Positions 7,914-63,642 of a stretch of DNA of 64,000 nucleotides are shown here, piece after piece. The position numbers and the translations under genes were made by a program. Every line of letters begins with the position of its first letter. Position 1 is the stretch's first letter. The notes under the pieces are model-generated. The model was not told where the DNA came from. It searched no databases and saw nothing but the letters and a program-made list of their open reading frames with translations. This stretch comes from Patescibacteria group bacterium (GTDB lineage: Bacteria; Patescibacteriota; Minisyncoccia; Minisyncoccales; Staskawiczbacteraceae), in contig JBBTQL010000004.1 in NCBI GenBank assembly GCA_038065715.1, positions 35,693 to 99,692 on the forward strand, in the 5' to 3' direction.

Positions 7914-8748
7914 TTTTATTAAAAATATTATTTTTTATTTCTTTTAAGTCGGCTCCCGTTTTCATTAAAAGCCCGGCAGTTTCAAAAATTTCCTGCGTTG
8001 TTTTTGAATTTCCAAAATTTTCTGTGTAAATTGCCAGTCCTGCCAAAAAGCAGTTGGCAGCCTGTTTTTTTACCCCGTTAGAAAGCCCATCTTTTGAGGG
8101 TTCCTTATTGGATGGGTCGTATGGCCCCGGTTGCTCAAGCTTTCTATCGGGGTTTACAAGATTTAACGCCATCTCTGACAAAGAATAATCTCTTATTATG
8201 TTTATTCTACCAAAGTTTTGGTTTTTTGTCCCGACTTCGTCGAGGATGCTCGATGGCGAAGCCATCGGCACACTTTCACTATCTATATTTAAAATAAGAG
8301 AATCCAGTAAAAACCCATAAGAGTTAAGCTTGCCAGCCAATTCAGTTTTAAAATCTTTTATTCCTAAAGTTATTGTAAGGTCTGGTTTTGTTTCTGAAAA
8401 ATAAAATAAGAGGTTTTCTTTTTTTATATTTCCCCTGTCAATCATTAAATGAATTTTTAATCCTTCTTCATTTTTTTCGTAGTAAACCTGCGAGATTTCA
8501 GCTGTTTTTTGAGGAATTGAAATCACAAAGTTTTTTGGATATGAAATATGGCCTAAGCTAGGCAATAAAAATCGAAATTTTTCTGGAAATTCTTCTATTA
8601 TTAAGTTTACATTTTTATTTAATTCTTTTAAAGTATAAAAAAGAGCCAAAGCAACTGGAATGCTTTCGCCATTTGGGTTATCATTTGGAATAATGCAGAT
8701 ATTTTTTGCTTCAGAAATTAATTGCTTTGCTTCTTGCGGTATTTCCAT
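7906..8748 (-). CDS. Hypothetical protein, possibly a degenerate DHH-family phosphoesterase, carrying a GC-palindrome insertion
   Basis: N-terminus ICIIPNDNPNGESIPVALALF resembles DHH motif I/II but lacks the catalytic His. Overlaps pilB by 8 nt. Palindromic element at 8228-8271 lies in-frame. Confidence 0.35.
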   Translation of the reverse strand: MEIPQEAKQLISEAKNICIIPNDNPNGESIPVALALFYTLKELNKNVNLIIEEFPEKFRFLLPSLGHISYPKNFVISIPQKTAEISQVYYEKNEEGLKIHLMIDRGNIKKENLLFYFSETKPDLTITLGIKDFKTELAGKLNSYGFLLDSLILNIDSESVPMASPSSILDEVGTKNQNFGRINIIRDYSLSEMALNLVNPDRKLEQPGPYDPSNKEPSKDGLSNGVKKQAANCFLAGLAIYTENFGNSKTTQEIFETAGLLMKTGADLKEIKNNIFNKNE

Positions 8749-8796
8749 AAAATTTAAGATTTAATATACCCTATTCGATTTTAAAAAATAAGTCAA

Positions 8797-9312
8797 TTGT
8801 GGATTATGAGAAATAAAATTATAACAAAAAGTTTTAAAGAAACTCAAAAAATTGGCGAGAAATTGGCAGATGAAATTTTGAAATTACTGCCGCAAAAAAG
8901 CGCAATAATTTTAGGTTTGAACGGAAACCTTGGGGGAGGCAAAACAACCTTCTTGCAAGGTTTTGCAAAAGGGCTGGGAATTAAAGAAAAAATATTAAGC
9001 CCCACCTTTGTAATTTACAAAAAGTTTATTATTTCACCAATACTTATAAATAAGCGTACGCAGAATTTGGAGTATCGCCAATTTTATCACTTTGATTGCT
9101 ATCGCATAAAAAATTACAAAGACTTTTTGGCGATAGGATTTTCCGCCCAAGGCGGACCAGCCTCGGGCTGGAAAGAAATAATTTCAAACCCAAAAAATAT
9201 TGTGGCAATTGAATGGCCAGAAAAAATTAAAAAGATTTTTCCAAAAACTGCCGTAAAGATAAATTTTAAATTTATCAACGAAAGCGCAAGAGAGTTGACA
9301 ATTAATAAATAA
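8797..9312 (+). CDS. tsaE: tRNA threonylcarbamoyladenosine biosynthesis ATPase TsaE
   Basis: P-loop LGLNGNLGGGKTTFLQGF. SPTF and HFDCYRI motifs of the YjeE/TsaE family. In-frame GC insert at 9143-9171. Confidence 0.75.
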   Translation: MWIMRNKIITKSFKETQKIGEKLADEILKLLPQKSAIILGLNGNLGGGKTTFLQGFAKGLGIKEKILSPTFVIYKKFIISPILINKRTQNLEYRQFYHFDCYRIKNYKDFLAIGFSAQGGPASGWKEIISNPKNIVAIEWPEKIKKIFPKTAVKINFKFINESARELTINK

Positions 9313-11619: not shown

Positions 11620-12513
11620 ATGCCAGAGCTTCCAGAAGTAGAAACAACGGTGCGCGGTTTAAATTCAAAGGTCCTAAAAAGGGCCTTTGTTGATGTGTGG
11701 TCAGATTGGGAAAGAATAATTAAAAAACCAGACAATTTTGAAGTTTTTAAAAAAAATATAAAAGGTAAAAAAATAGAAAAAATATGGCGCCGCGCTAAAA
11801 ATATTATTTTTGATTTATCTGAAGAAAGTTCTCTTTTAATCCACCAAAAAATGACAGGCCATCTTTTGCATGGAACATGGAACATAAAACATGAAACATG
11901 GACGCCGGCTGAAAAAGGTCCATTGAATGACCCGATGAATCGTTTTATTCATTTAATATTTTTTTTAGACAATGGAAAAATGCTCGCTTTGTCTGATGCA
12001 AGAAAATTTGCCAAAGTTGAATTATGGAAAACAGAAGAATTATTAAAAGAATTTGATAATTTAGGGCCAGAACCGCTGGACAAAAATTTTACTTTTGAAA
12101 AGTTTAAAGAAAGATTGTTGCGGCAAAACCCGCCTTCGCCAAGGCTTCGGCGGGGCAAAGTAAAACAGGTTTTAATGAATCCAGAAATAATTGCAGGCAT
12201 TGGAAATATTTATTCTTCAGAGGCATTGTGGCATGCAAAAATACATCCAGAAAAAGAAATCCAAAAATTAAATGGCAAAGAACTAAAAAATATTTATAAT
12301 TCTATTAAAAAAGTTTTAGAGTTGGGGGTGAAATTGGGAGGAGAAAGTTTCTCAGACTACAGAAAACCAGACGGCAGCAAAGGAAATTTTGACACAGAAA
12401 GAAGGGCTTATAAAAGGGAGGGGCAAAAATGCCATAGATGCGGGACAAAAATAAAAAGAATAAAATTTGGCGGCAGAAGCGCATTTTTTTGCCCCCACTG
12501 CCAAAAACTATGA
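11620..12513 (+). CDS. mutM: Formamidopyrimidine-DNA glycosylase (Fpg/MutM)
   Basis: MPELPEVETTVRGL N-terminus with catalytic Pro2/Glu3. C-terminal zinc finger CHRCGTKIKRIKFGGRSAFFCPHCQ. GC insert at 12129-12155. Confidence 0.85.
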   Translation: MPELPEVETTVRGLNSKVLKRAFVDVWSDWERIIKKPDNFEVFKKNIKGKKIEKIWRRAKNIIFDLSEESSLLIHQKMTGHLLHGTWNIKHETWTPAEKGPLNDPMNRFIHLIFFLDNGKMLALSDARKFAKVELWKTEELLKEFDNLGPEPLDKNFTFEKFKERLLRQNPPSPRLRRGKVKQVLMNPEIIAGIGNIYSSEALWHAKIHPEKEIQKLNGKELKNIYNSIKKVLELGVKLGGESFSDYRKPDGSKGNFDTERRAYKREGQKCHRCGTKIKRIKFGGRSAFFCPHCQKL

Positions 12514-12526
12514 TAAAAGCAAAAAA

Positions 12527-13331
12527 TAGAGACCCGATCTCGCACAACTCACACAAAAAAATACTATGCCATATAGAAAAGAACAATTTGTGAACGGAGA
12601 TATTTATCACATTACCAATAGAGCAATTGATGATAACTTAATTTTTAAAGATAAAAACGATTATTATCGCGGTATTTTTTCTATTTATGAATTTAATAAT
12701 GAAAAACCTGTGAATATATCTAATAGAAGACGAGATCGGATTGTCGAAAAAGAAAGAGAAAAACCGTGTGAGACCGGGTCTCATGCGAAGCTTTCTTCGG
12801 ATGAAAGGGAAAAGTTGGTGGATATTTTTGCATTTTGTTTTATGCCAAATCATATTCATCTTTTGGTAAAACAGCTGGAAGATAATGGAATAACTAATTT
12901 TATGAAAAAAGTCGGCATAGGATATGGAGGTTATTTTAATAGAAAATATCAGCGCAAAGGTTATGTTTTCCAAAACAGATTTAAATCAGTTCACATAGAG
13001 AATGACAATCAATTTATGGTGGTTGTGCCGTACATATTTACAAATCCCACCGCATTAATAGAGCCAGGGTGGAAAGGACAGGGGATCAAAAATCACTCCA
13101 CCAAAGAGGTGCTTAAATTTTTAGAAGAATACAAGTGGTCAAGTTATCAAGATTGTATTGGAATTAAGAATTTTGATTCTGTCACACAAAGAGATTTTTT
13201 ATTAGAAATGATGGCAGGCAAACAAGGTTGTAAAGACGCAGTTGAAAATTGGATAAAAAATAAAGTCGAAATTGGACAGCACGCAAATATTTTATTAGAT
13301 TAAAAACCGTGTGAGATCGGGTCTCACACAG
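12527..13331 (+). mobile_element. IS200/IS605-like (REP/RAYT-like) element: Y1 HUH transposase flanked by subterminal hairpins
   Basis: Left hairpin-forming end tagagacccgatctcgcacaactcacaca (12527-12555). Right end ccgtgtgagatcgggtctcacacag (13307-13331). Hairpin ends rather than classical inverted repeats fit IS200/IS605. A third copy of the right-end hairpin lies inside the transposase ORF at 12764-12787. Confidence 0.5.
12566..13303 (+). CDS. tnpA: IS200-like Y1 (HUH) transposase
   Basis: HUH motif MPNHIHLLV. Tyr region GYGGYFNRKYQRKGYVFQNRF. DIYHITNRA N-terminal motif. 245 aa. Confidence 0.6.
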   Translation: MPYRKEQFVNGDIYHITNRAIDDNLIFKDKNDYYRGIFSIYEFNNEKPVNISNRRRDRIVEKEREKPCETGSHAKLSSDEREKLVDIFAFCFMPNHIHLLVKQLEDNGITNFMKKVGIGYGGYFNRKYQRKGYVFQNRFKSVHIENDNQFMVVVPYIFTNPTALIEPGWKGQGIKNHSTKEVLKFLEEYKWSSYQDCIGIKNFDSVTQRDFLLEMMAGKQGCKDAVENWIKNKVEIGQHANILLD

Positions 13332-13341
13332 CTTGCTAAAA

Positions 13342-25705: not shown

Positions 25706-25715
25706 GGGGGGGGGG
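25706..25715. repeat. Homopolymeric G10 (C10 on the avd strand) in the avd/RT divergent intergenic region
   Basis: agtctGGGGGGGGGGattaaaag. The equivalent position in DGR-B has G7. Confidence 0.9.
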
Positions 25716-25739
25716 ATTAAAAGCTGAGTTATTTTGATT

Positions 25740-26726
25740 ATGAAAATTACTTTGCAACATAAATACGAAGACATCATAAGCGTTGAGAATATTTTGGAAG
25801 CATGGCAAGAGTTTCTTCTCGGCAAAAGAAACAAGCCCGATGTTCAAGAATTTTCTCTCTGTCTGATGAATAATGTTTTTAATTTGCACAACGACTTATC
25901 CAATCATACCTACAAACACGGAGGCTATCAACAATTTAAAATTAACGACCCAAAGCCAAGAACAATCCACAAAGCCAGCGTAAAAGACAGATTATTGCAC
26001 CACGCAGTATATCGTATATTATACCCGTTTTTTGATAAAAAGTTTATTGCAGACTCTTTCTCTTGCAGAAACAACAAAGGCACTCATAAAGCATTAAACA
26101 AATTCAGGGAGTTCAGCTATATTGTTTCCAAAAACAACACAAACACCTGCTGGATTTTAAAATGCGACATAAAAAAGTTTTTTGCCAGCGTTGATCAGCA
26201 GATACTAATTAAAATTTTAGAAAAATATATTTCAGAAAAAGATATTATCAACTTTCTAAAAGAAATAATTTTTGGTTTTAAACCCAATGGTTTGCCTCTC
26301 GGTAATTTGACTTCCCAGTTGTTCGCAAATGTTTATCTGAATGAATTTGACCAGTTTGTAAAACACAAATTGAAAGTAAAATACTATATTAGGTATGCCG
26401 ATGACTTCGTAATTTTATCAGAGAACAAAAATTATTTAAAAAACATAATTCCAGAGCTAAAATATTATTTAAAAAACAATTTAAAACTGGAAATTCATCC
26501 AAATAAAATTTTTATTAAAACATTGAATTCTGGCGTTGATTTTTTAGGCTGGATTAATTTTACAGATCATAGAGTTTTAAGGACAAAAACTAAAAACAGA
26601 ATATTAAAGAGAATAAAAAATAATTCAAGTATTGAAACATTAAATTCTTATTCGGGTTTGTTAAAACATGGAAATATGAACAAAATGATTAAGAAATTAT
26701 TTAAGGAAACGGAGATTGCTTTTTAA
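25740..26726 (+). CDS. DGR reverse transcriptase A
   Basis: RT motifs including GLPLGNLTSQLFANVYLNEFD (DGR-type motif 4) and YIRYADDFV (YxDD). 329 aa. Nearly identical to the partial RT at 63686. Confidence 0.85.
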   Translation: MKITLQHKYEDIISVENILEAWQEFLLGKRNKPDVQEFSLCLMNNVFNLHNDLSNHTYKHGGYQQFKINDPKPRTIHKASVKDRLLHHAVYRILYPFFDKKFIADSFSCRNNKGTHKALNKFREFSYIVSKNNTNTCWILKCDIKKFFASVDQQILIKILEKYISEKDIINFLKEIIFGFKPNGLPLGNLTSQLFANVYLNEFDQFVKHKLKVKYYIRYADDFVILSENKNYLKNIIPELKYYLKNNLKLEIHPNKIFIKTLNSGVDFLGWINFTDHRVLRTKTKNRILKRIKNNSSIETLNSYSGLLKHGNMNKMIKKLFKETEIAF

Positions 26727-29087: not shown

Positions 29088-30386
29088 ATGAAGTTTGCAG
29101 CTGATTTTCATATACACTCAAAATATTCAAGAGCCACTTCCCCTTCAATGGACTTGGAAAATTTAGATAAATGGGCAAAAATTAAAGGCATTAAGGTTTT
29201 AGGAACAGGAGATTTTACTCATCCTGGTTGGCTTAAGAATTTAAAAGAAAAATTGAGCCCCGCTGAGCGGGGTCTTTTTTGCGCCCAAGGCGCATCCGCC
29301 TTGGGCGCAAAGCTTAATGATAATTTTGCTACTAGGTTTTTACTTACAGCTGAGATTAGCTGTATATATTCTAAGGCTGGTAAAGTTAGAAAAATCCATA
29401 TTATAATTTTTGCCCCCTCATTTGAGGCAGTAGAAAAAATTAATTTAAAACTGGGCCAAATTGGAAATTTAAAAGCAGATGGCAGGCCTATTTTAGGCCT
29501 TGATGCAAAAGAATTGGCTAAAATTATTTTTGACGCAGATGAAAATTGCATGGTTGCGCCGGCTCATATGTGGACGCCATGGTTTTCTGTTTTCGGTTCA
29601 AAATCAGGCTTTAATTCAATGGAAGAGTGTTTTGAAGAATATTCAAAATATATTTACGCTGGCGAAACTGGTTTGTCTTCTGACCCGGCAATGAACTGGC
29701 GGCTTTCACAATTAGATAAAATTACCTTGATTTCTAATAGCGACGCCCATTCCCCCAGTAAAATCGGTAGAGAAGCGAATTTTTTTGATACAGAAATGAG
29801 TTATATTGGGATAATAGACATAATAAAAAACCCCATTAGAAAGCCTTCGGCTTCTAACGGGGCAAGGTTTTTGTATACAATAGAATTTTTTCCAGAAGAA
29901 GGAAAGTATCATTATGACGGCCATAGGTCGTGCGACATAAGATTATCTCCGCAAGAATCAAAAAGATATAACAATATTTGCCCAAAATGCCAAAAACCTC
30001 TTGTTATTGGAGTTTTAAACAGAGTTGAGGAGCTGGCTGATAGGCCTGAAGGATTCCAGCCAGAAAATGCTGTACCTTTTAAAAGCTTAATTCCATTAGA
30101 AGAAATAATCGCTGAATCTATCGGCGTTACGACTGCGTCAAAACAAGTCGCTAAATTTTATAATAATTTAATAAAAAATATAGGCAGCGAGTTTAAAATT
30201 TTGTTAGAAGCAGATAAAGAAGAAATTAAAAAAATAAGTTTGCCTGCCATTGCAGAAGGTATTATAAAAGTTAGGGAAGGGAAAATTTATATTGAGCCGG
30301 GTTACGATGGAGTCTATGGAAAAATAAAAATTTTTGCAAAACCAGAGGAAAAAAAATTTTTATTTTCACAAAAAACATTATTTTAA
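29088..30386 (+). CDS. EndoQ-like PHP-domain endonuclease (TIGR00375 family)
   Basis: MKFAADFHIHSKYSRATSPSMDLENLDKWAKIKGIKVLGTGDFTHPGW closely matches the EndoQ N-terminus. C-terminal zinc finger CPKCQKP. 432 aa. Confidence 0.6.
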   Translation: MKFAADFHIHSKYSRATSPSMDLENLDKWAKIKGIKVLGTGDFTHPGWLKNLKEKLSPAERGLFCAQGASALGAKLNDNFATRFLLTAEISCIYSKAGKVRKIHIIIFAPSFEAVEKINLKLGQIGNLKADGRPILGLDAKELAKIIFDADENCMVAPAHMWTPWFSVFGSKSGFNSMEECFEEYSKYIYAGETGLSSDPAMNWRLSQLDKITLISNSDAHSPSKIGREANFFDTEMSYIGIIDIIKNPIRKPSASNGARFLYTIEFFPEEGKYHYDGHRSCDIRLSPQESKRYNNICPKCQKPLVIGVLNRVEELADRPEGFQPENAVPFKSLIPLEEIIAESIGVTTASKQVAKFYNNLIKNIGSEFKILLEADKEEIKKISLPAIAEGIIKVREGKIYIEPGYDGVYGKIKIFAKPEEKKFLFSQKTLF

Positions 30387-32697: not shown

Positions 32698-34527
32698 ATG
32701 AAGAACAAGGAAATTGCTAAAATATTTTATGAAATAGCGAAATTTTTAGAAATAGAAAGAGTGGCTTTTAAGCCCTATGCTTATGAAAGGGCTGGTAATT
32801 CCTTAGAAGCATTGAAAGAAGATGTGGGCGATATTTATAGAAAAGGCGGGGCAAAGGCTTTGCAGGAAATTTCAGGAGTCGGCAAAAATATTGCAGGGCA
32901 TATTGAAGAGTATTTAAAAAATGGAAAGGTAAAAATCTACGAACAGCTTAAAAAGAAATTGCCCCTTAAAATAGATGAGTTGATTAAAGTAGAAGGTTTG
33001 GGCCCAAGAAAAATAAAAATTCTTTATCAAAAATTAGGCGTTAAAAATTTGAAAGATTTGGAAAAGATGGCTAAGGCGCATAAAATAGCCCCGCTTTTCG
33101 GTTTTGGAGAAAAAACAGAAAATAATATTTTAGAAGGCATTGAATTTTTAAAAAGAAGCAAAGGCCGGTCTCGTTTGGGAGACATAATGCCAATAGTAGA
33201 AGAAATTTTTGAAAATTTAAAAAATTTAAAAGAGGTTGAAAAAATCAGTTTAGCTGGCTCTTTAAGAAGAAGAAAAGAAACTATTGGAGATGTTGATATT
33301 TTAGTGGTTTCCCGCCCAGCAGGGCGAGGCTCGCCTGGTGAGGCGGCTAATAAAGTAATGGATTTTTTTGTTTCTCAAGAGGGCGTAGAAAAAGTATGGG
33401 GCAAAGGAGGAACAAAAGCATCGGTTCATATGAAATATGGATTTGATATGGATTTAAGAATTGTTCCCGAAAAAAGTTATGGCTCTGCTTTGCAATACTT
33501 TACCGGGTCAAAAGACCACAATATTGTTACAAGAAAAATTGCCATAGAAAAAGGCCTAAAATTAAGCGAGTACGGAGTTTTTAAAGGAAAAAAACAGATT
33601 GCCGGTAAAACAGAAGAAGATGTTTATAAAGCAATTGGTTTGCCATTTATAGAACCAGAATTAAGAGAAAACGAAGGCGAAATTGAGGCGGCTCTTCGAC
33701 AAGCTCAGGGTAAACTTCCGGGATTGCCAAAAATAGTTGAGTTAAAAGATATAAGGGGGGACTTACATTGCCATTCAAAACCCGATGGAGTCGCCCATTT
33801 GAATGTCGGAGAAAAATCGATTGAAGAAATGGCTAAAGTGGCAATGGCTATGGGTTACGAATATATTGGAATTTCTGATCATACAAAATTTTTAAAAATT
33901 GATGATGGTTTAGACGAGAAACAATTATTAAAACAAAATGAAGCAATAAAAAAAATAAATACCCGCCTCCGCCAACCTGCGCTTCGCCAAAGGCTTCGGC
34001 AAGGCGAGGGCTTCGGCGGGCAAGAAAAATTTCGCATACTTCACGGATGCGAGGCAAATATTCTACCGGACGGTTCAATAGATATTAAAGACGAAGTTTT
34101 GGCTCAATTAGATTATGTTATAGCTGGCGTTCACAATGCTTTAAAACAAGAAAAACTAAAAATGACAGAAAGGTTAATAAGAGCAATGAAAAATCCGAAT
34201 GTTGATATTATTTCGCATCCAACGGGCAGATTAATAGGCAGCAGAGACGAATATCAAATTGATTTTGATAAAATTTTAGAAATAGCAAAAGAAACCGGAA
34301 CAATTTTGGAAATTAATTCGTCTCCTTACAGATTAGATTTAAAAGACTTATATGTCAGAAGAGCAAAAAATGAAGGCGTGAAAATGATTATAAATACCGA
34401 CAGCCACCAAAAAGAGCAATTAAATCTTATGGAATATGGAGTTTCGCAAGCCAGAAGAGGTTGGGCGGAGAGAGAGGATATTATAAACACAAATTCATTA
34501 GACGGATTATTAAAATATTTTAAATGA
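32698..34527 (+). CDS. DNA polymerase X family protein with a C-terminal PHP domain
   Basis: N-terminal HhH/Pol-beta-like region (GVGKNIAGHIEEYL, GDVDIL). PHP motifs DLHCHS and ISDH. Two in-frame GC inserts (33311-33346; 33962-34021). Confidence 0.85.
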   Translation: MKNKEIAKIFYEIAKFLEIERVAFKPYAYERAGNSLEALKEDVGDIYRKGGAKALQEISGVGKNIAGHIEEYLKNGKVKIYEQLKKKLPLKIDELIKVEGLGPRKIKILYQKLGVKNLKDLEKMAKAHKIAPLFGFGEKTENNILEGIEFLKRSKGRSRLGDIMPIVEEIFENLKNLKEVEKISLAGSLRRRKETIGDVDILVVSRPAGRGSPGEAANKVMDFFVSQEGVEKVWGKGGTKASVHMKYGFDMDLRIVPEKSYGSALQYFTGSKDHNIVTRKIAIEKGLKLSEYGVFKGKKQIAGKTEEDVYKAIGLPFIEPELRENEGEIEAALRQAQGKLPGLPKIVELKDIRGDLHCHSKPDGVAHLNVGEKSIEEMAKVAMAMGYEYIGISDHTKFLKIDDGLDEKQLLKQNEAIKKINTRLRQPALRQRLRQGEGFGGQEKFRILHGCEANILPDGSIDIKDEVLAQLDYVIAGVHNALKQEKLKMTERLIRAMKNPNVDIISHPTGRLIGSRDEYQIDFDKILEIAKETGTILEINSSPYRLDLKDLYVRRAKNEGVKMIINTDSHQKEQLNLMEYGVSQARRGWAEREDIINTNSLDGLLKYFK

Positions 34528-38037: not shown

Positions 38038-38054
38038 TTGTATTTATTATTTTA

Positions 38055-38403
38055 GTGGAAGCGCCGGGGTCGAACCCGGGTCCAGAAATTTTTTAAAAAT
38101 AAATCTACAAATTTATCTTGCTTTGTTGTTTGGATATTAAATAAGAAGCAAGAAAAATGTTTAATATCCTAATTCTCGTAAATCTCGACAGTTCCCCGAG
38201 AAATAAAACTGCCTATCCTGAAAATATAACACCCTCGGTCCATTTATCAGGAGTCAATGGCGAGGATGCAGCATTAAGCTAAAGCTAGTGCTGGTTGCCT
38301 ATTAAATAAATTAGCAATTATGTTTTTTCTATAAGTTTAACCAGGTTATAGAAAACTGGATTTGCATATTTTTAATGAAACATCTGTCAAAACTTACGCT
38401 CCC
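38055..38403 (-). ncRNA. ssrA: tmRNA (SsrA)
   Basis: 3' end GGACCCGGGTTCGACCCCGGCGCTTCCA (T-arm + acceptor) at 38056-38083 on the minus strand. 5' GGGAGCG at 38397-38403 pairs with the 3' CGCUUCC to form a 7-bp acceptor stem. Candidate tag reading frame gct aat tta ttt aat agg caa cca gca cta gct tta gct taa gives (A)NLFNRQPALALA* (plus 38274-38315). Lies immediately downstream of smpB. Confidence 0.65.
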
Positions 38404-38404
38404 A

Positions 38405-38908
38405 TTATCCTCTTAATTCGCGATTAACCTCGCGCTCTGTGTCTCTTTTCTTTATTTCCTCTTTTTTGTTGTATTTTTTCTTTCCCTTAGCCAATCCGAA
38501 TTCAAGTTTTATCCTACCATTTTTCTCGTAAACTTTCAAGGGTATCAGCGAAAAACCCTTCATATTTGACTTTCCTGCAAGAAAATTTATCTCTTTTTTG
38601 TTCAAAAGCAGTTTTCTTTGCCTTTCTGGATTATATCCCTCTGGCGCGTTTTTTGGCTGATAAGCTGGAATTTTAGCTCCTATTAAAAATACCTCTTCAT
38701 TTCTTAAAACAACATAAGAAGCAGTTAGAGTAATATGCCCGCCCCGAATTGATTTTACTTCTGTGCCAATCAAAACAAGCCCCGCTTCAAACTTGTCGAG
38801 TATTTCATAATCATAGTAGGCCTTTTTGTTTTCACTGAAAATTTTCATATTTTTCTTTAAGCTTAGCAGTTGTTTTATATTACCACAACTATTGACAAAT
38901 GTAAACAA
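38405..38908 (-). CDS. smpB: SsrA-binding protein SmpB
   Basis: ...KKAYYDYEILDKFEAGLVLIGTEVKSIRGG...LLLNKKEI... The likely true start is the internal MKIFSEN (~38848). Confidence 0.85.
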   Translation of the reverse strand: MFTFVNSCGNIKQLLSLKKNMKIFSENKKAYYDYEILDKFEAGLVLIGTEVKSIRGGHITLTASYVVLRNEEVFLIGAKIPAYQPKNAPEGYNPERQRKLLLNKKEINFLAGKSNMKGFSLIPLKVYEKNGRIKLEFGLAKGKKKYNKKEEIKKRDTEREVNRELRG

Positions 38909-39830: not shown

Positions 39831-41482
39831 TAAAAGAAGAAATAAAAAAAATAGTGGAAAACTCAATTAAAAACCTGCAAAAACAGGGCGCATTTTTAAA
39901 ATTAAAAATGCCAGAAATTTTAATTGAGCGGCCTAAAGAAAAAATACGCGGTGACTATTCAACCAACATTGCCTTTGTAATTGGAAAAGATGTTTTGAAA
40001 AATCCATTTGAAACGGCATTGCTTTTGAAAACAGAAATTGTCTCGCTTTGCGAGATCTCGCGCAGCGAGAAAAAACAAAAATCTGTAATAGAAAAAGTTG
40101 AGGTAGTGGGAGGGTTTATTAATTTTTTTGTTGCTGACGATTATTTTAAAAATCAGCTGCAAATTATTTTAAAACAAAAAAACAAATTTGGAGATTTAAA
40201 ACTTGGTAAAAGTCAAAAAGTAAACATAGAATTTATTTCTGCAAATCCAACAGGGCCGTTAACTTTAGGAAACGGCAGAGGAGGATTTTGTGGCGATGTT
40301 TTGGCTAATGTTTTAGAAAAAGCAGGATATAAAGTTGAAAGAGAATATTATATTAACAATACCGGAGCTCAAATTAAAAAACTTGGGCATTCTGTAATTG
40401 GAGATGCAGAAGCTGTTTACAAAGGAAAATATATTATTGATTTAAGAAACAAAGTTAAGGGAGATGACCCCGAGAAAGTTGGAGAAAAATCGGCAAAAAT
40501 TATTTTAGAAAAAATGATAAAGCCGTCTGTAAAAAAAATGGGAATTAAATTTGACACATGGTTTTCAGAAAAAACTCTCTATAAAAATAAAGAAGTAGAT
40601 AAAACAATACAAGAATTGGCTAAAAAAGGGTTCACCTATGAAAGCGAAGACGCTGTGTGGTTTAAATCTAAAGAATTGGGCGATGACAAAGACAGGGTTT
40701 TGGTGAGAGCCGACGGAATTAAAACATATTTTGCTTCAGATATTGCTTATTTTAAAAATAAATTTAAAAGAGGGTTTGGTAAACTTATTATGTTTTTGGG
40801 AGCCGACCACTATGGATATGTTCCGAGGCTAAAAGCTGCCTCGCTTGCTTTTGGTTTTAAAAAAGACAGTATTGATGCTATTGTTATGCAGTTGGTGCGG
40901 CTTTATGAAAAAGGCAAAGAAGTAAGAATGGCAAAAAGGACTGGTATTTATGTAACAATAGATGAGTTAATTGGCGAGGTTAGTTTGGATGTTGCCAGAT
41001 TTTTCTTTTTAATGATAAGCCCTAATACCCACATGAATTTTAATTTGGATTTAGCAAAAGAAAAATCAGAGAAAAATCCGGTTTTTAAAGTGCAATATGC
41101 GCATGCCCGAATTTGCTCAATTTTCCGAAAATTTGGAAATTTCAAATTTTCCCGATTTCATCGAGGATCCTCAATGGCAAAGCCATCGGGACAAATTTCA
41201 AATTTAAAATTATTAAATGAGCCGAGCGAGTTAGGGTTAATTAGAGAATTAATTAAACTTCCAGAAATTATTGAAGAGATAGCTAAAGATTATCAAGTTC
41301 AAAGACTACCGCAATACGCAATGGATTTAACTGATGCATTCCATAGATTTTATGAAAACTGTAAAGTCCTGAGCGAAGTCGAAGGATTGCGTGATGCCCG
41401 CTTGTCTCTTGTTATGGCAACAAAAATTGTTTTAAAAAATACATTAGACTTAATGGGAATATCTGCTCCTGAAAAAATGTGA
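39827..41482 (+). CDS. argS: Arginyl-tRNA synthetase
   Basis: ISANPTGPLTLGNGRGGFCGDVLANVLEKAGYKV class I signature. C-terminal anticodon-binding DALR domain. Composite heptamer + palindrome insertion at 41129-41210 is in-frame. Confidence 0.9.
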   Translation: MIKEEIKKIVENSIKNLQKQGAFLKLKMPEILIERPKEKIRGDYSTNIAFVIGKDVLKNPFETALLLKTEIVSLCEISRSEKKQKSVIEKVEVVGGFINFFVADDYFKNQLQIILKQKNKFGDLKLGKSQKVNIEFISANPTGPLTLGNGRGGFCGDVLANVLEKAGYKVEREYYINNTGAQIKKLGHSVIGDAEAVYKGKYIIDLRNKVKGDDPEKVGEKSAKIILEKMIKPSVKKMGIKFDTWFSEKTLYKNKEVDKTIQELAKKGFTYESEDAVWFKSKELGDDKDRVLVRADGIKTYFASDIAYFKNKFKRGFGKLIMFLGADHYGYVPRLKAASLAFGFKKDSIDAIVMQLVRLYEKGKEVRMAKRTGIYVTIDELIGEVSLDVARFFFLMISPNTHMNFNLDLAKEKSEKNPVFKVQYAHARICSIFRKFGNFKFSRFHRGSSMAKPSGQISNLKLLNEPSELGLIRELIKLPEIIEEIAKDYQVQRLPQYAMDLTDAFHRFYENCKVLSEVEGLRDARLSLVMATKIVLKNTLDLMGISAPEKM

Positions 41483-53335: not shown

Positions 53336-54607
53336 ATGTATAAAAAAACAACATTAAAAAACGGATTAAGGGTGATAACAATTCCAATGGAAAACGCCAA
53401 TAGTGTTACTGTTTTAATCTTGGTTGGCACAGGTTCAAAATATGAAACAAAAGACATAAACGGCATTTCTCATTTTTTAGAACATATGTTTTTTAAAGGC
53501 ACTGAAAAAAGGCCAACCACTTTAAAAATTGCCGAAACCTTAGATATGGTTGGCGGCGAATATAATGCTTTCACATCAAAAGAAATTACTGGATTTTGGG
53601 CTAAAGTAGATAAAAAACACACAGATGTTGCTTTAGACTGGATATCTGATATGTTTTTAAATTCTAAATTTGACGAAAAAGAAATAGAAAGAGAAAAAGG
53701 AGTAATAATAGAAGAGGTAAATATGTATTTAGACACCCCAATGGCCTATGTTGGAGAATTATGGGAAGATTTGCTTTACAAAGACCAGCCGGCCGGCTGG
53801 CGGGTTATAGGCGAAAAAGAAAACATACTGAACTTTAACAGAAAAAAAATTATAAATTATTATAAAAATCATTATTCGCCAAAAAATACAATAATTTGCG
53901 TGTCGGGAGGCATTGAGCAAGATAAAATTGCATCAAAAATACAGAGTTATTTTTCCCCCTTCGGGGGATCCGCCGTAGGCGGAAAAGTTAAAGTAAAAGA
54001 ATACCAAAAAGAGCCTGAAATATTGTTTCACCATAAAAAAACAGACCAGACCCATTTTTGTTTAGGGGTAAGGGCATACGATATGTTTCATCAGCAAAAA
54101 TATGCTTTGGTTTTACTGGCTATTATTTTGGGGGGAAACATGAGCTCGCGTCTTTTTATTAAAGTAAGGGAAAGAAGCGGTTTGGCTTATTCTATTCACA
54201 CATCTGTTGACGCTTCTACTGACACCGGATATTTGGTCACGCAAGCTGGAATTGACCATAAAAATTTAGAAAAATCAGTAAAGCTTATTTTACAGGAATA
54301 TAAAAACATTAAAGATACAAAAATTACAGAAAGAGAATTGCAAAAGGCAAAAGATTATTTAAAGGGAACTATGTCTTTGTCTTTAGATTCGTCAGACAGC
54401 CAAGCTTCTTTTTATGCCGTGCAAGAATTGCTTGAAAAGGAAGTTTTATCTCCTGAAGAAAAGTTTAAAAAAATTGACACAGTTTCTGTAAATGATATAA
54501 AAAAGGTAGCAGAGGATATATTTTTACCAGAAAAGTTGAATTTGGCAGTTATCGGCCCGTTTGAAGAAAATAAAAAAGAAGAGTTTAAAAAAATACTAAA
54601 AATATGA
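53336..54607 (+). CDS. M16-family zinc peptidase (insulinase-like)
   Basis: HFLEHMFFKGT (HxxEH). In-frame GC insert at 53945-53972 (PFGGSAVGGK). Confidence 0.8.
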   Translation: MYKKTTLKNGLRVITIPMENANSVTVLILVGTGSKYETKDINGISHFLEHMFFKGTEKRPTTLKIAETLDMVGGEYNAFTSKEITGFWAKVDKKHTDVALDWISDMFLNSKFDEKEIEREKGVIIEEVNMYLDTPMAYVGELWEDLLYKDQPAGWRVIGEKENILNFNRKKIINYYKNHYSPKNTIICVSGGIEQDKIASKIQSYFSPFGGSAVGGKVKVKEYQKEPEILFHHKKTDQTHFCLGVRAYDMFHQQKYALVLLAIILGGNMSSRLFIKVRERSGLAYSIHTSVDASTDTGYLVTQAGIDHKNLEKSVKLILQEYKNIKDTKITERELQKAKDYLKGTMSLSLDSSDSQASFYAVQELLEKEVLSPEEKFKKIDTVSVNDIKKVAEDIFLPEKLNLAVIGPFEENKKEEFKKILKI

Positions 54608-58036: not shown

Positions 58037-58945
58037 ATGATTATTGATACACATTCTCATTTAAGTTTTAAGGCATATGATAGCGATAGAGATGAGGTTA
58101 TAAAACGCACTCAAAAAGAGGGTGTTGTTTGTATTGATGTTGGCACAAAATATGAAACAAGCAAAAGGGCAGTTGAATTAGCAGAAAAATATGAAAATAT
58201 ATATGCAGCCGTTGGAATGCATCCAATTCATATAAAAACAGATTTATTAAAATTAAAATTAGACAAAGAAGAGGGCGCATTTGCTCCGCTTGGCGAAGAG
58301 TTTGATAAAGCGAAATACAGAGAACTTGTTATAAATAGTGAAAAAAAAGCCGAAGGTCCTAACTCGAGAAGGACCGAAGGCTCTGAGGAGCTAAAGCGAC
58401 GAAGAGTGGTAGCGGTTGGTGAAATTGGATTAGACTATTATTATAAGCCAAAAGGAACAGCTAAAAAAGAACAATTTAAAGAAAAACAAAAACAAGTTTT
58501 TTTACAGCAATTAGAATTGGCAGAAGAATTAAATTTACCGGTAATTGTTCATTGCAGAATGGCGCATCAGGATGTTATAGAAATTTTGAAAAATAAAAAT
58601 GTTGAAGGAGTTATTCATTGTTTCACAGGAAATTGGGAAGAAGCGCAAAAATATATAGATTTAGGATTTTATATTGGCTTAAACGGAATTATTTTTTCTG
58701 CCCTAGGCAGACCCGCCTCGGGCGGGAAATTACCGCTAGATGATGTTGTTACGCAGTGTCCCCTAGATAAAATTTTAACAGAAACAGATTGCCCATATTT
58801 AACACCCTTGCAGGAAAACGGAAAAAGAAACGAACCGATTTTTGTAAAACACGTTATTCAAAAAATCGCTGACTTAAAAAGTGTTAGTTTCGCCGAAGTT
58901 GCCGACAAAACTACCCAAAACGCCAAAAAATTATTTAATATTTAA
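58037..58945 (+). CDS. tatD: TatD-family metal-dependent hydrolase
   Basis: MIIDTHSHL start. Conserved His/Glu/Asp positions. Two in-frame GC inserts (58349-58381; 58698-58726). Confidence 0.85.
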   Translation: MIIDTHSHLSFKAYDSDRDEVIKRTQKEGVVCIDVGTKYETSKRAVELAEKYENIYAAVGMHPIHIKTDLLKLKLDKEEGAFAPLGEEFDKAKYRELVINSEKKAEGPNSRRTEGSEELKRRRVVAVGEIGLDYYYKPKGTAKKEQFKEKQKQVFLQQLELAEELNLPVIVHCRMAHQDVIEILKNKNVEGVIHCFTGNWEEAQKYIDLGFYIGLNGIIFSALGRPASGGKLPLDDVVTQCPLDKILTETDCPYLTPLQENGKRNEPIFVKHVIQKIADLKSVSFAEVADKTTQNAKKLFNI

Positions 58946-62025: not shown

Positions 62026-62201
62026 TTAATAATACAGCTCTTTTTAAGTGAAAATACTTGCAAAAACAGCGGTTATAGCCAAAAGCGACCGAAGGTCGTC
62101 CTGAGCAGAGCCGAAGGACAACAAATCGGTATTTTCTGGCTATGACTGCTATGGTAGTAGTCAAGCGAAATGGTGAAACCCTAAAGAAAGGAAAAAGCAC
62201 C

Positions 62202-63164: not shown

Positions 63165-63274
63165 TCTGGGCTGTGAATGCGAACTGGAACTCTAACTACG
63201 GTTACTGGAATGTCGAGGCTAACTCGGTTGAGAATCCGAACAGGTGGAACGATAGCAACCAGATTCTCTCCCGC
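63165..63274 (+). repeat. DGR-B template repeat (TR)
   Basis: AAC/AAT-rich (…AACTGGAACTCTAACTACGGTTACTGGAATGTCGAGGCTAACTCG…). Encodes LWAVNANWNSNYGYWNVEANSVENPNRWNDSNQ in the VR frame. Confidence 0.8.
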
Positions 63275-63642
63275 TACTGTTTTCTTTCTTCCGCTTTTAT
63301 CGCGGAAGTTTTGCTTATTATTCCTTTTTTCCAGCCACCGATTATCTTACCAATGCCTTCTATCTCAGCGCCAAGCGAGATATATTGTTTATTAGAAACG
63401 AGTTTTGTTTCCCATAAAAGCTGAAAGAAAAAACGCAACGAATCAATTTTGTCCGATGTCGCTTCAAGCAAAACAAGTTTTTTATTTATTGGCGTATACG
63501 TAGCTTTTCTTAATAACTCAAGAAGATCTAAAAATAAAATATCTACTTTAGTCCCGATTCCGAACCGCGCGATTCGTTCAATATTGCGATGCACTTCCAT
63601 CCACTGTTTATATATCAATTTGGATTTTTGCAAAACTGGCAA
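63274..63642 (-). CDS. avd: DGR accessory variability determinant Avd-B (TTG start)
   Basis: 122 aa. ...LGAEIEGIGKIIGGWKKGIISK C-terminus. Co-linear with Avd-A. Stop codon overlaps the last 2 nt of TR-B. TTG start 6 nt from the C7 tract. Confidence 0.7.
   Translation of the reverse strand: MPVLQKSKLIYKQWMEVHRNIERIARFGIGTKVDILFLDLLELLRKATYTPINKKLVLLEATSDKIDSLRFFFQLLWETKLVSNKQYISLGAEIEGIGKIIGGWKKGIISKTSAIKAEERKQ

Follow-up and report, generated by a model that had tools for sequence, protein, structure and literature searches.

A 30-nt double-hairpin element in tsaE and tatD, probably a REPIN-like mobile element, and its spread through Patescibacteria

Introduction

In the 64-kb stretch of contig JBBTQL010000004.1 analysed here (assembly GCA_038065715.1, a metagenome-assembled genome from Hainich groundwater; Patescibacteria, also called the candidate phyla radiation or CPR; hereafter the window), the genes tsaE and tatD carry look-alike GC-rich inserts. 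What are these segments, and how did two such different genes come to share them? A sequence-only reading of the window had reported the inserts, and both are indeed present, in the same frame. Our analysis indicates that they are probably two copies of a non-autonomous, REPIN-like mobile DNA element of 30 bp, which would be translated within its host proteins and mobilised by a Y1 tyrosine transposase. The element is spread through the genomes of Patescibacteria, its insertions occur without target duplication at sites that prefer TTT/VA (the slash marks the point of insertion; V is G, A or C), and among the copies that survive, sense orientation and codon phase 0 are strongly over-represented.

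The elements in tsaE and tatD

The two copies and their flanks are as follows.

9142-9171, plus strand: tsaE element, canonical, ttt TCCGCCcaaGGCGGA CCAGCCtcgGGCTGG aaa, between TTT (Phe) and AAA (Lys), peptide SAQGGPASGW
58697-58726, plus strand: tatD element, variant, ttt TCTGCCctaGGCAGA CCCGCCtcgGGCGGG aaa, peptide SALGRPASGG

Each element is made of two abutting 15-nt hairpins, each with a 6-bp GC stem and a 3-nt loop, giving 30 nt or 10 codons, and both begin at a codon boundary. The earlier description, a small hairpin followed by a 15-nt perfect palindrome, was right about the tandem palindromes and needs correction in its details: the second palindrome has a 3-nt loop between the arms of a 6-bp stem, and the first is also 15 nt long once its closing T...A pair is counted, so that the unit is 15 + 15 = 30 nt. 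The trailing AAA, then counted as part of the element, is host sequence, namely the Lys codon of the empty site. The tsaE copy is identical to the master sequence of the family, TCCGCCCAAGGCGGACCAGCCTCGGGCTGG, which, read directly, is free of stop codons in all six frames. The tatD copy differs from it at six positions. Four of them are compensatory, a C-G pair of hairpin 1 being replaced by T-A and an A-T pair of hairpin 2 by C-G; the fifth falls in a loop and the sixth is the last base of the element.

The double-hairpin elements have about 70% GC in a window of 34% GC. The window has 43 GC-rich hairpins where 4.6 +/- 2.3 are expected, and the degenerate 30-nt family pattern, TCYGCCNNNGGCRGACCNGCCTCGGGCNGG, has two matches in the window and none in 100 shuffles, which together exclude chance. 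Gene identities were taken from Pfam scans of 48 window open reading frames (ORFs), nearly all of the non-nested ORFs of at least 100 aa; the scans confirmed TsaE, TatD, Fpg/MutM, PolX, M16 and IleRS.

Empty and filled sites

Comparison with homologues identified the tatD segment as an insertion. TatD relatives are typically 271-273 aa long, against 302 aa for the window protein, and in an alignment of 30 homologues most pass directly from GINGIIF to K. At the DNA level, about 75 related metagenomic loci have the empty site ATT TTT/AAA or close variants of it. The filled window site reads ATT TTT (30 nt) AAA, with neither target-site duplication nor terminal inverted repeats; the insertion is thus exactly the 30-mer. 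In TsaE, about 109 of 120 homologues read GF/KEII and lack the unit, and about 11 carry SA(Q/L/K)GGP(A/V)SGW at the GF/K junction, in some cases decayed (SDKGGLLSGW). The TsaE insert corresponds to a 10-residue gap in the alignment with YjeE of H. influenzae (1HTW).

The added residues are most likely read as an extra surface loop of 10 amino acids. In an AlphaFold2 (AF2) model of the window TatD (mean pLDDT 82.5), residues 222-230, nearly the whole insert, fall between secondary-structure elements and have pLDDT values of less than 50, so that they are modelled as a low-confidence loop. Insertions are found at tolerated positions: this TatD loop, the TsaE alignment gap and, in 13 copies, the disordered G/F linker of DnaJ.

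TsaE has a second insertion at 9040-9090, ISPILINKRTQNLEYRQ, a 12-residue gap in the comparison with 1HTW that aligns to a hypervariable region where homologues show the recurring peptides KNRRPSDLWY and KSTLSRVFYDR. It is possibly another element, read in different frames.

Distribution in Patescibacteria

A scan of contigs from one genome per species with the degenerate pattern returned at least 119 stretches, where by our estimate well under one would be expected even in GC-rich DNA; the flank, pairing and phase statistics below are drawn from 120 copies. Nearly all of the matches listed with informative labels belong to Patescibacteria, among them Magasanik-, Staskawicz-, Giovannoni-, Nealson-, Moran-, Falkow-, Gottesman-, Colwell-, Nomura-, Vogel-, Yanofsky-, Doudna-, Kaiser-, Portnoy- and Uhrbacteria and Paceibacterota. 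Some 25 of those listed carry other labels, mostly third-party 'uncultured ...' names, which we took as deposited. No match to the element was found in the viral contigs of IMG/VR.

A second scan, of the window and related loci (1.62 Mb), used structure only and required two adjacent 15-nt hairpins with GC-rich stems and at least 11 of 12 Watson-Crick pairs. It found 164 tandem double hairpins, against none in shuffles. The arrays always consist of exactly two units, with 143 perfect doubles and no triples, and an autonomous parent, looked for as two hairpins split by a gene or as arrays of three or more units, was not found. No other sequence is as common as that of the tsaE copy (47 of 162), and the variants form a star around this master.

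These distributions bear on two explanations without mobility. An origin in each gene by replication template switching, with the likeness due to convergence in a GC-poor genome, would draw on quasipalindrome mutagenesis, in which template switching creates and perfects palindromes, and such a process could help to keep the stems perfect. It would, however, copy flanking host sequence, which the elements do not contain, and the same 30 nt, loops included, are present in 47 copies, with more than 100 near-identical variants, in different genes and genomes. A local origin of this kind is effectively refuted, and we consider it extremely improbable. Still less credible is an artefact of assembly or sequencing, or a contaminating oligonucleotide, in favour of which nothing was found. 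The element is present in frame in one single-cell genome as well as in metagenome-assembled genomes (MAGs), from many laboratories and assemblers; the window TatD and TsaE with their inserts are on record from 5 and 6 contigs, respectively; three TatD contigs from three Hainich assemblies encode the insert exactly; and the copies show compensatory variation.

Inside ORFs of at least 150 aa lie 101 of the 120 copies (about 84%), distributed over 68 protein clusters. The claim that short GC-rich palindromic elements insert in frame in coding DNA is thereby borne out, with at least 68 unrelated host clusters and the empty TatD sites, as is their insertion in non-coding DNA, since 19 of the 120 copies lie in no such ORF.

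The window itself holds five double-hairpin elements: those of tsaE (9142) and tatD (58697) and the following three.

29280-29309, plus strand: ORF 29088-30386 (no Pfam hit), TGCGCCcaaGGCGCA TCCGCCttgGGCGCA, flanks TTT/AAG, phase 0, peptide CAQGASALGA
40041-40070, plus strand: argS, TCTCGCtttGCGAGA TCTCGCgcaGCGAGA, flanks TTG/AAA, starting at codon position 2 and so in another phase (VSLCEISRSEK)
53954-53983, plus strand: M16 peptidase, TCCCCCttcGGGGGA TCCGCCgtaGGCGGA, flanks TTT/AAA, phase 0, peptide SPFGGSAVGG

Five elements in 64 kb is a much higher density than the 9 found in about 0.76 Mb of unbiased TatD loci. In the copy at 29280-29309 the second unit repeats the first except that the loop is inverted, which makes the 30-mer itself a near-perfect palindrome, with a predicted RNA fold of -29.8 kcal/mol (z = -6.1); the same relation between the units recurs in several variants, for example at locus L143. 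The sequence-only reading had placed a GC-rich composite here, at 29255-29308 in what it called an EndoQ-like gene. The double hairpin is there, and the EndoQ label is unconfirmed. It had also grouped these composites with others as one related set. The M16 and ORF 29088-30386 copies do share the 30-nt architecture and the F/K flanks with tsaE and tatD, and the set as a whole falls into at least three separate families.

Mobility

In both DnaJ and TatD the element is found at different positions of the same protein. In DnaJ, the thirteen copies occupy different positions of the Gly/Phe-rich linker, which is rich in GGN TTT GAT sites. Among 120 TatD homologues, eight have the element, at four sites in all, and the nearest relatives of each are empty; five of the eight, which are not one another's closest relatives, share the GIIF/K junction. 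In M16, the double hairpins that the window and two related loci (L033 and L037) carry at one and the same junction are different. One MAG (MAG221, JAYEHJ01) has three copies at different sites (L140, and L154 twice), all with the rare CGA loop variant, which looks like a genome-specific subfamily. These three copies are all antisense to their host ORFs.

At three loci in three genomes (L155 at 3488, L056 at 626 and L183 at 2016) another palindrome, ggattcccgc TTT (element) CGCgggaat, contains the element in its loop, which suggests nesting in a further repeat family.

The 30-mer could instead be a functional DNA signal, an uptake sequence or a binding site of a conserved CPR protein, whose function would preserve it and which would spread by uptake and homologous recombination instead of transposition. 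The near identity of the sequence across many CPR classes would suit a signal, and recombination could have filled the same junction in TatD and M16 genes that are not sisters; the M16 copy is a same-length replacement of the kind allelic recombination would give, the window encodes a type IV pilus/type II secretion system (T2SS) ATPase, and this origin-proximal window is denser in elements than the TatD loci. Recombination cannot seed non-homologous sites, however, and yet at least 68 host families and 13 DnaJ positions are occupied. Uptake sequences such as the USS of Haemophilus and the DUS of Neisseria occur about once per kb, far above the copy number seen here, and the constant TTT/VA junction with an exact 30-nt unit points to an insertion reaction. 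We regard a DNA signal as improbable.

Target site and fold

Upstream of the element, T is present in 69% of the copies at flank position -3, in 92% at -2 and in 64% at -1, where G occurs in 2 of 118. Downstream, position +1 is G, A or C (T in 3%) and position +2 is A in 80%. These preferences hold outside phase 0 too. The empty sites already contain TTT and AAA, and the 5' and 3' flank bases do not covary; TTT/VA is therefore a preference of the site, belonging neither to the element nor to a stem. A closing stem formed by TTT and AAA was considered and rejected, as the flanks do not covary.

Covariation supports the two-hairpin fold. At the paired positions 18 and 28 of hairpin 2, which the search pattern leaves free, 74 of the 120 copies have A-T, 42 have C-G and 4 have other combinations; at positions 3 and 13 of hairpin 1, also free, the counts are 111 for C-G, 8 for T-G and 1 for C-A. 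Loop 1 occurs in 17 variants while the stems covary. Other self-complementary stems (TCAGCC, TCGGCC, TCCCGC, TCTCGC, TCCCCC and CCACCC) came from the structure-only scan, which selects for pairing, and are no independent evidence. The predicted folds of the copies are stable, with energies between -18 and -30 kcal/mol. With flanks included, ViennaRNA favours one long hairpin across the 30-mer in the tsaE and tatD copies; such a hairpin is the minimum-energy fold in some copies because the two units resemble each other. A single long hairpin was rejected, the covariation at 18/28 and 3/13 supporting two.

Two other candidates were set aside. A search of the whole window at the Rfam gathering threshold returned only the transfer-messenger RNA (tmRNA), and no known RNA family over the elements. 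Slower evolution of the element (97% identity against 62% for the flanks in orthologous pairs) is a circular result, since the copies were chosen by a near-exact pattern.

Reading phase, orientation and selection

The 120 copies were classified by orientation and phase relative to the host ORF, and expected shares were computed from the TTT/RA sites in about 0.6 Mb of related DNA.

Sense, phase 0 (F0): 76 of 120 observed (63%), 24% expected
Sense, phase 1 (F1): 4 of 120 observed (3%), 0% expected
Sense, phase 2 (F2): 6 of 120 observed (5%), 21% expected
Antisense, phase 0 (R0): 11 of 120 observed (9%), 18% expected
Antisense, phase 1 (R1): 2 of 120 observed (2%), 5% expected
Antisense, phase 2 (R2): 2 of 120 observed (2%), 22% expected
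No ORF of at least 150 aa, or intergenic: 19 of 120 observed (16%), 10% expected

Sense phase 1 is expected to be empty because T/RA would form a stop codon there. With 63% observed against 24% predicted for F0, target choice alone cannot explain the excess in sense phase 0. The sense phase-0 copies read SAxGGPASG(W/G), usually between Phe and Lys, Glu or Asp.

The orientation of the element tracks that of its host gene where the host opposes its neighbours (16:4), and intergenic copies are evenly divided (7:7). Such tracking speaks for selection acting on the gene product, be it peptide or mRNA, and against a mechanism tied to the replication strand; with neighbour orientation as a proxy for replication direction, a replication-strand bias was unsupported by the same counts. 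So selection filters phase and orientation, and it does not show in length. It had been proposed to ask whether insert length is a multiple of three inside coding sequences only, a comparison that does not apply to this family, whose copies, the intergenic ones among them, are all 30 nt long. With this length and without stop codons, the element keeps the host ORF open wherever it lands.

The sense bias could also reflect a function of the hairpins in mRNA, as a stabiliser, a barrier to RNases or a translation pause that aids folding, insertion being only their origin. Such a role would account for the strong tie between orientation and host gene and would fit the very stable folds, the compensatory changes in the stems with variable loops, and the greater tolerance of the sense strand for G-T wobble (10 copies) than for C-A (2 copies). 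For a function in RNA only, however, the bias to one of the three sense phases (76:6:4) is unexpected, intergenic copies occur in both orientations, and a C-to-T deamination bias on the coding strand could give the wobble asymmetry without selection. We see little likelihood in this explanation.

A candidate mobiliser

The only transposase-like gene found among the 48 window ORFs scanned with Pfam is a Y1 gene, which, with its hairpins, is arranged as follows.

12566-13303, plus strand: predicted Y1 HUH transposase of 245 aa, like the REP-associated tyrosine transposases (RAYTs), Pfam Y1_Tnp
12527-12545, minus strand: REP-like hairpin upstream of the gene, GAGA-CCCGA-TCTC, inverted with respect to the downstream copy
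12759-12783, plus strand: REP-like hairpin inside the gene, in frame, peptide EKPCETGSH
13302-13334, plus strand: REP-like hairpin just past the stop codon, GTGTGAGA-TCGGG-TCTCACAC

The match to Y1_Tnp (E = 1.8e-8; 35 bits against a cut-off of 23) is accompanied by a best NCBIfam match to REP_Tyr_transpos ('REP-associated tyrosine transposase'), at 41.9 bits, below the equivalog cut-off of 80. The HUH motif (H96, H98) and Y156-x3-N160-P161 are invariant in 42 homologues. A profile search gave marginal hits to TnpA of ISDra2 and to E. coli TnpA-REP (4ER8), a phmmer search against the PDB found nothing, and the AF2 model (mean pLDDT 52) is too poor for a fold search. The family has 1565 hits in Patescibacteria, of which the best 120 are 60-82% identical to the window protein, and locus L203 has the gene in the same neighbourhood (exonuclease, HAMP, mutM, Y1, holA); the Y1 gene thus behaves as a resident gene and not as a jumping insertion sequence.

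In seven genomes, the window included, hairpins with genome-specific stems flank the Y1 gene, the two sides being visibly inverted in six. The loops are TCGGG/CCCGA or a close variant in six of the seven (ACGGG in L063, TCGGA on one side in L203) and TCCGA/TCGGA in L077. In the window and other genomes, at least four of the seven in all, a third copy lies in frame inside the gene. Of three homologues examined at the DNA level, two (L203 and L205) have a hairpin at the internal position and one (L204) has none, and a similar internal peptide segment is present in most members of the family. The genome-specific stems are common to the copies at one locus, which therefore evolve in concert. The Y1 gene is a plausible candidate for the enzyme that mobilises the 30-mer.

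A REPIN-like element moved and translated in this way would unite these observations. The element, two small palindromic units placed head to tail like a miniature REPIN, would travel as single-stranded DNA, mobilised by a Y1 (HUH) tyrosine transposase of the RAYT/IS200 type that recognises hairpins, for example that at 12566-13303. It would enter TTT/VA sites without duplicating the target and leave the ORF open, selection would then remove most other insertions, and the phase-0 element would be translated as Ser-Ala-x-Gly-Gly-Pro-Ala-Ser-Gly-Trp/Gly, a small flexible peptide. If it is translated, peptides such as ...GFSAQGGPASGWK... are expected in CPR proteins.

A number of observations weigh against parts of this proposal. 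The hairpins flanking the Y1 gene (GTGAGAYCGGGTCTCAC) differ from the 30-mer and occur in the window at the Y1 locus only; hairpins of their type are low-copy and mostly found at that locus, and no Y1 gene lies near any of the at least 119 element loci listed, so that the assignment of the enzyme is circumstantial. The 3' flank is constrained as well (A at +2 in 80%), which is atypical of IS200/IS605 targets, and orientation does not track the presumed replication direction as it does in known IS200/IS605 elements. Exact look-ups of the window TsaE and TatD minus their 10 residues in a protein collection gave no strain-level empty alleles. Other M16 orthologues (L004-L083 compared) have a native Lys-rich loop of 10 residues at the junction (YF-KNIKKRKSGS-KLKVKE). 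The M16 element replaces it with no net residues added and the protein length unchanged, either as a replacement or as an insertion followed by an equal deletion. Finally, we infer translation from the phase bias alone, and the 7:1 excess of sense over antisense in phase 0 is not obviously explained by the respective peptides, SAQGGPASGW and PARGWSALGG.

A broader formulation would see in these copies a family that extends over the whole superphylum and comprises the smallest bacterial mobile elements known, 30 bp with two hairpins and scarless insertion at TTT/VA. The family would be driven by a domesticated Y1/RAYT-like transposase, retained by most of these genomes as a syntenic gene of housekeeping character, and would continually generate 10-residue loops in essential CPR proteins. 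We advance it tentatively, as a possibility that is doubtful at this stage. If true, it would supply a mechanistic source of insertions in essential CPR proteins and possibly an enzyme-plus-30-mer system for precise insertion.

Relation to known systems

REPs and REPINs are GC-rich palindromic doublets that have neither terminal inverted repeats nor target duplications, and the single-copy RAYT genes are flanked by inverted hairpins. REPINs are longer, with two inverted REPs and a spacer, and classical REPs are extragenic. Their mobilisation by RAYT (Y1) transposases was reportedly described by Bertels and Rainey in 2011 and by Ton-Hoang et al. and Messing et al. in 2012. The CPR element likewise has two short GC-rich palindromic units as a doublet, and a conserved, syntenic Y1 gene stands between inverted hairpins, the arrangement known for RAYTs and their REPs. 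In contrast to that system, the hairpins that flank the CPR Y1 gene form a different family from the dispersed 30-mer. At the 5' foot of their hairpins, REPs have GTAG or CGTC as a conserved tag of four bases (PMC3733652). The CPR units lack such a tag (they start with TCCGCC, flanked by TTT), and unlike REPs they abut and lie mostly (about 84%) inside long ORFs.

IS200/IS605 elements have tens of bases between hairpins and cleavage sites, a replication-strand bias and an unconstrained 3' flank. He et al. are said to have set out their peel-and-paste mechanism in 2015, together with PATEs as derived miniature elements. The CPR element resembles such miniatures in having hairpins at both ends and no terminal inverted repeats or target duplication. 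Elements of the IS200/IS605 type insert 3' of a specific tetra- or pentanucleotide; the CPR element strongly prefers TTT in its 5' flank (T at -2 in 92%), and its 3' flank is constrained too (A at +2 in 80%). It also differs in being far shorter and in lacking a replication-strand bias.

In its behaviour the element recalls the Rickettsia palindromic elements (RPEs; Ogata et al. 2000), repeated palindromes found in frame in unrelated, often essential genes. As far as the account in PMC10969869 extends, RPEs measure about 100-150 bp, are confined to Rickettsia, add a peptide at tolerated positions and also occur in non-coding DNA. Like them, the CPR element inserts in frame in unrelated genes (in the window tsaE, tatD, M16, argS and ORF 29088) and leaves the ORF open. 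Unlike RPEs, to which it has no sequence relation, it is 30 bp long, has a fixed two-hairpin plan and occurs in many CPR classes, with a defined TTT/VA junction and a marked bias to one phase.

Mitochondrial genomes offer a further parallel. The GC clusters of yeast mitochondria are tens of bases long in an AT-rich genome, their loops evolve faster than their stems, and some lie in frame in var1 (PMC4478555, PMC8811140); elements with a double-hairpin fold are attributed to Allomyces mitochondrial DNA (mtDNA) by Paquin et al. (2000), as cited in those two papers. The AG or TAG terminal repeats of the yeast clusters are taken as target duplications (PMC8811140). The CPR element shares with the mitochondrial clusters the GC-rich hairpins in an AT-rich genome and the loops that vary more than the stems. 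The clusters are organellar, mostly intergenic and of variable length, whereas the CPR element has a fixed length, makes no duplication and is mostly intragenic. The byp elements of Magnusiomyces mtDNA are inserts that are not translated, need not be open and are not tied to codons in their length (PMC8811140). The CPR element differs from them in being always 30 nt with a strong bias to one phase, which argues for translation and against bypass.

In sum, the anatomy of the CPR element is closest to REP/REPIN-RAYT systems, its behaviour matches that of RPEs, and its composition and fold match those of mitochondrial GC clusters. Selfish palindromes inside protein genes are thus known from Rickettsia and yeast mitochondria, and what is new is a far smaller, sharply defined form across the CPR; a full-text search of the searchable literature found no description of the element in CPR. 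It explains the recurrent segments of the SAQGGPASGW type in CPR proteins and differences in the length of these proteins. This matters for annotation and structure prediction and, the inserts being homoplastic, for alignment and phylogeny. The inserts also provide a natural experiment on the peptide, the phase and the places in a protein at which a fixed insertion of 10 residues is tolerated.

Other hairpin families and features of the window

Two further families, both distinct from the 30-mer, account for other GC-rich segments that had been noticed in the window.

Second family: mutM 12130-12156 and polX 33978-34005, core TTCGCCAA(A)GGCTTCGG inside variable GC outer stems
Third family: argS 41369-41385, intergenic 62089-62117 and tatD 58346-58400 (degenerate), core CTGAGCRRAGYCGAAGG

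The mutM and polX segments do share a core, as proposed, and the same family is present in four other genomes (L016, L033, L141 and L155). The MutM copy is read in a different frame, as NPPSPRLRRG, and the polX segments are insertions of 9 and 18 residues relative to T. thermophilus PolX. The mutM stretch was rejected as a clean insertion, with a net gain of only 3 residues over a PDB homologue. For the third family, the likeness noted between 'ccgaagg' copies in tatD and in the leader of a diversity-generating retroelement (DGR) likewise held, through the shared core. This core, often preceded by CCGAAGG, has 15 hits in related loci, in coding and non-coding DNA, and the second insertion in TatD (KKAEGP...RRR), with the variants of it that homologues show, is explained by this family. 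The copy at 62089-62117 lies in the intergenic leader upstream of the DGR genes for bAvd and reverse transcriptase (RT).

Gene orientation switches at about 8000-8800, with minus-strand genes before 8748 and plus-strand genes after 8797. The cumulative GC skew has its minimum in the same region, which fits a replication origin. The tmRNA (Rfam, 112 bits) directly adjoins smpB on the minus strand (38053-38908). An RVT_1 reverse-transcriptase gene (25734-26726) lies beside an unusually GC-rich block (46% GC at 24-26 kb) that contains a run of ten G at 25706-25715. A second reverse-transcriptase locus, of DGR type, occupies 62.1-64 kb (extended in L001), with bAvd at 63274-63642 and the RT gene just past the end of the window.

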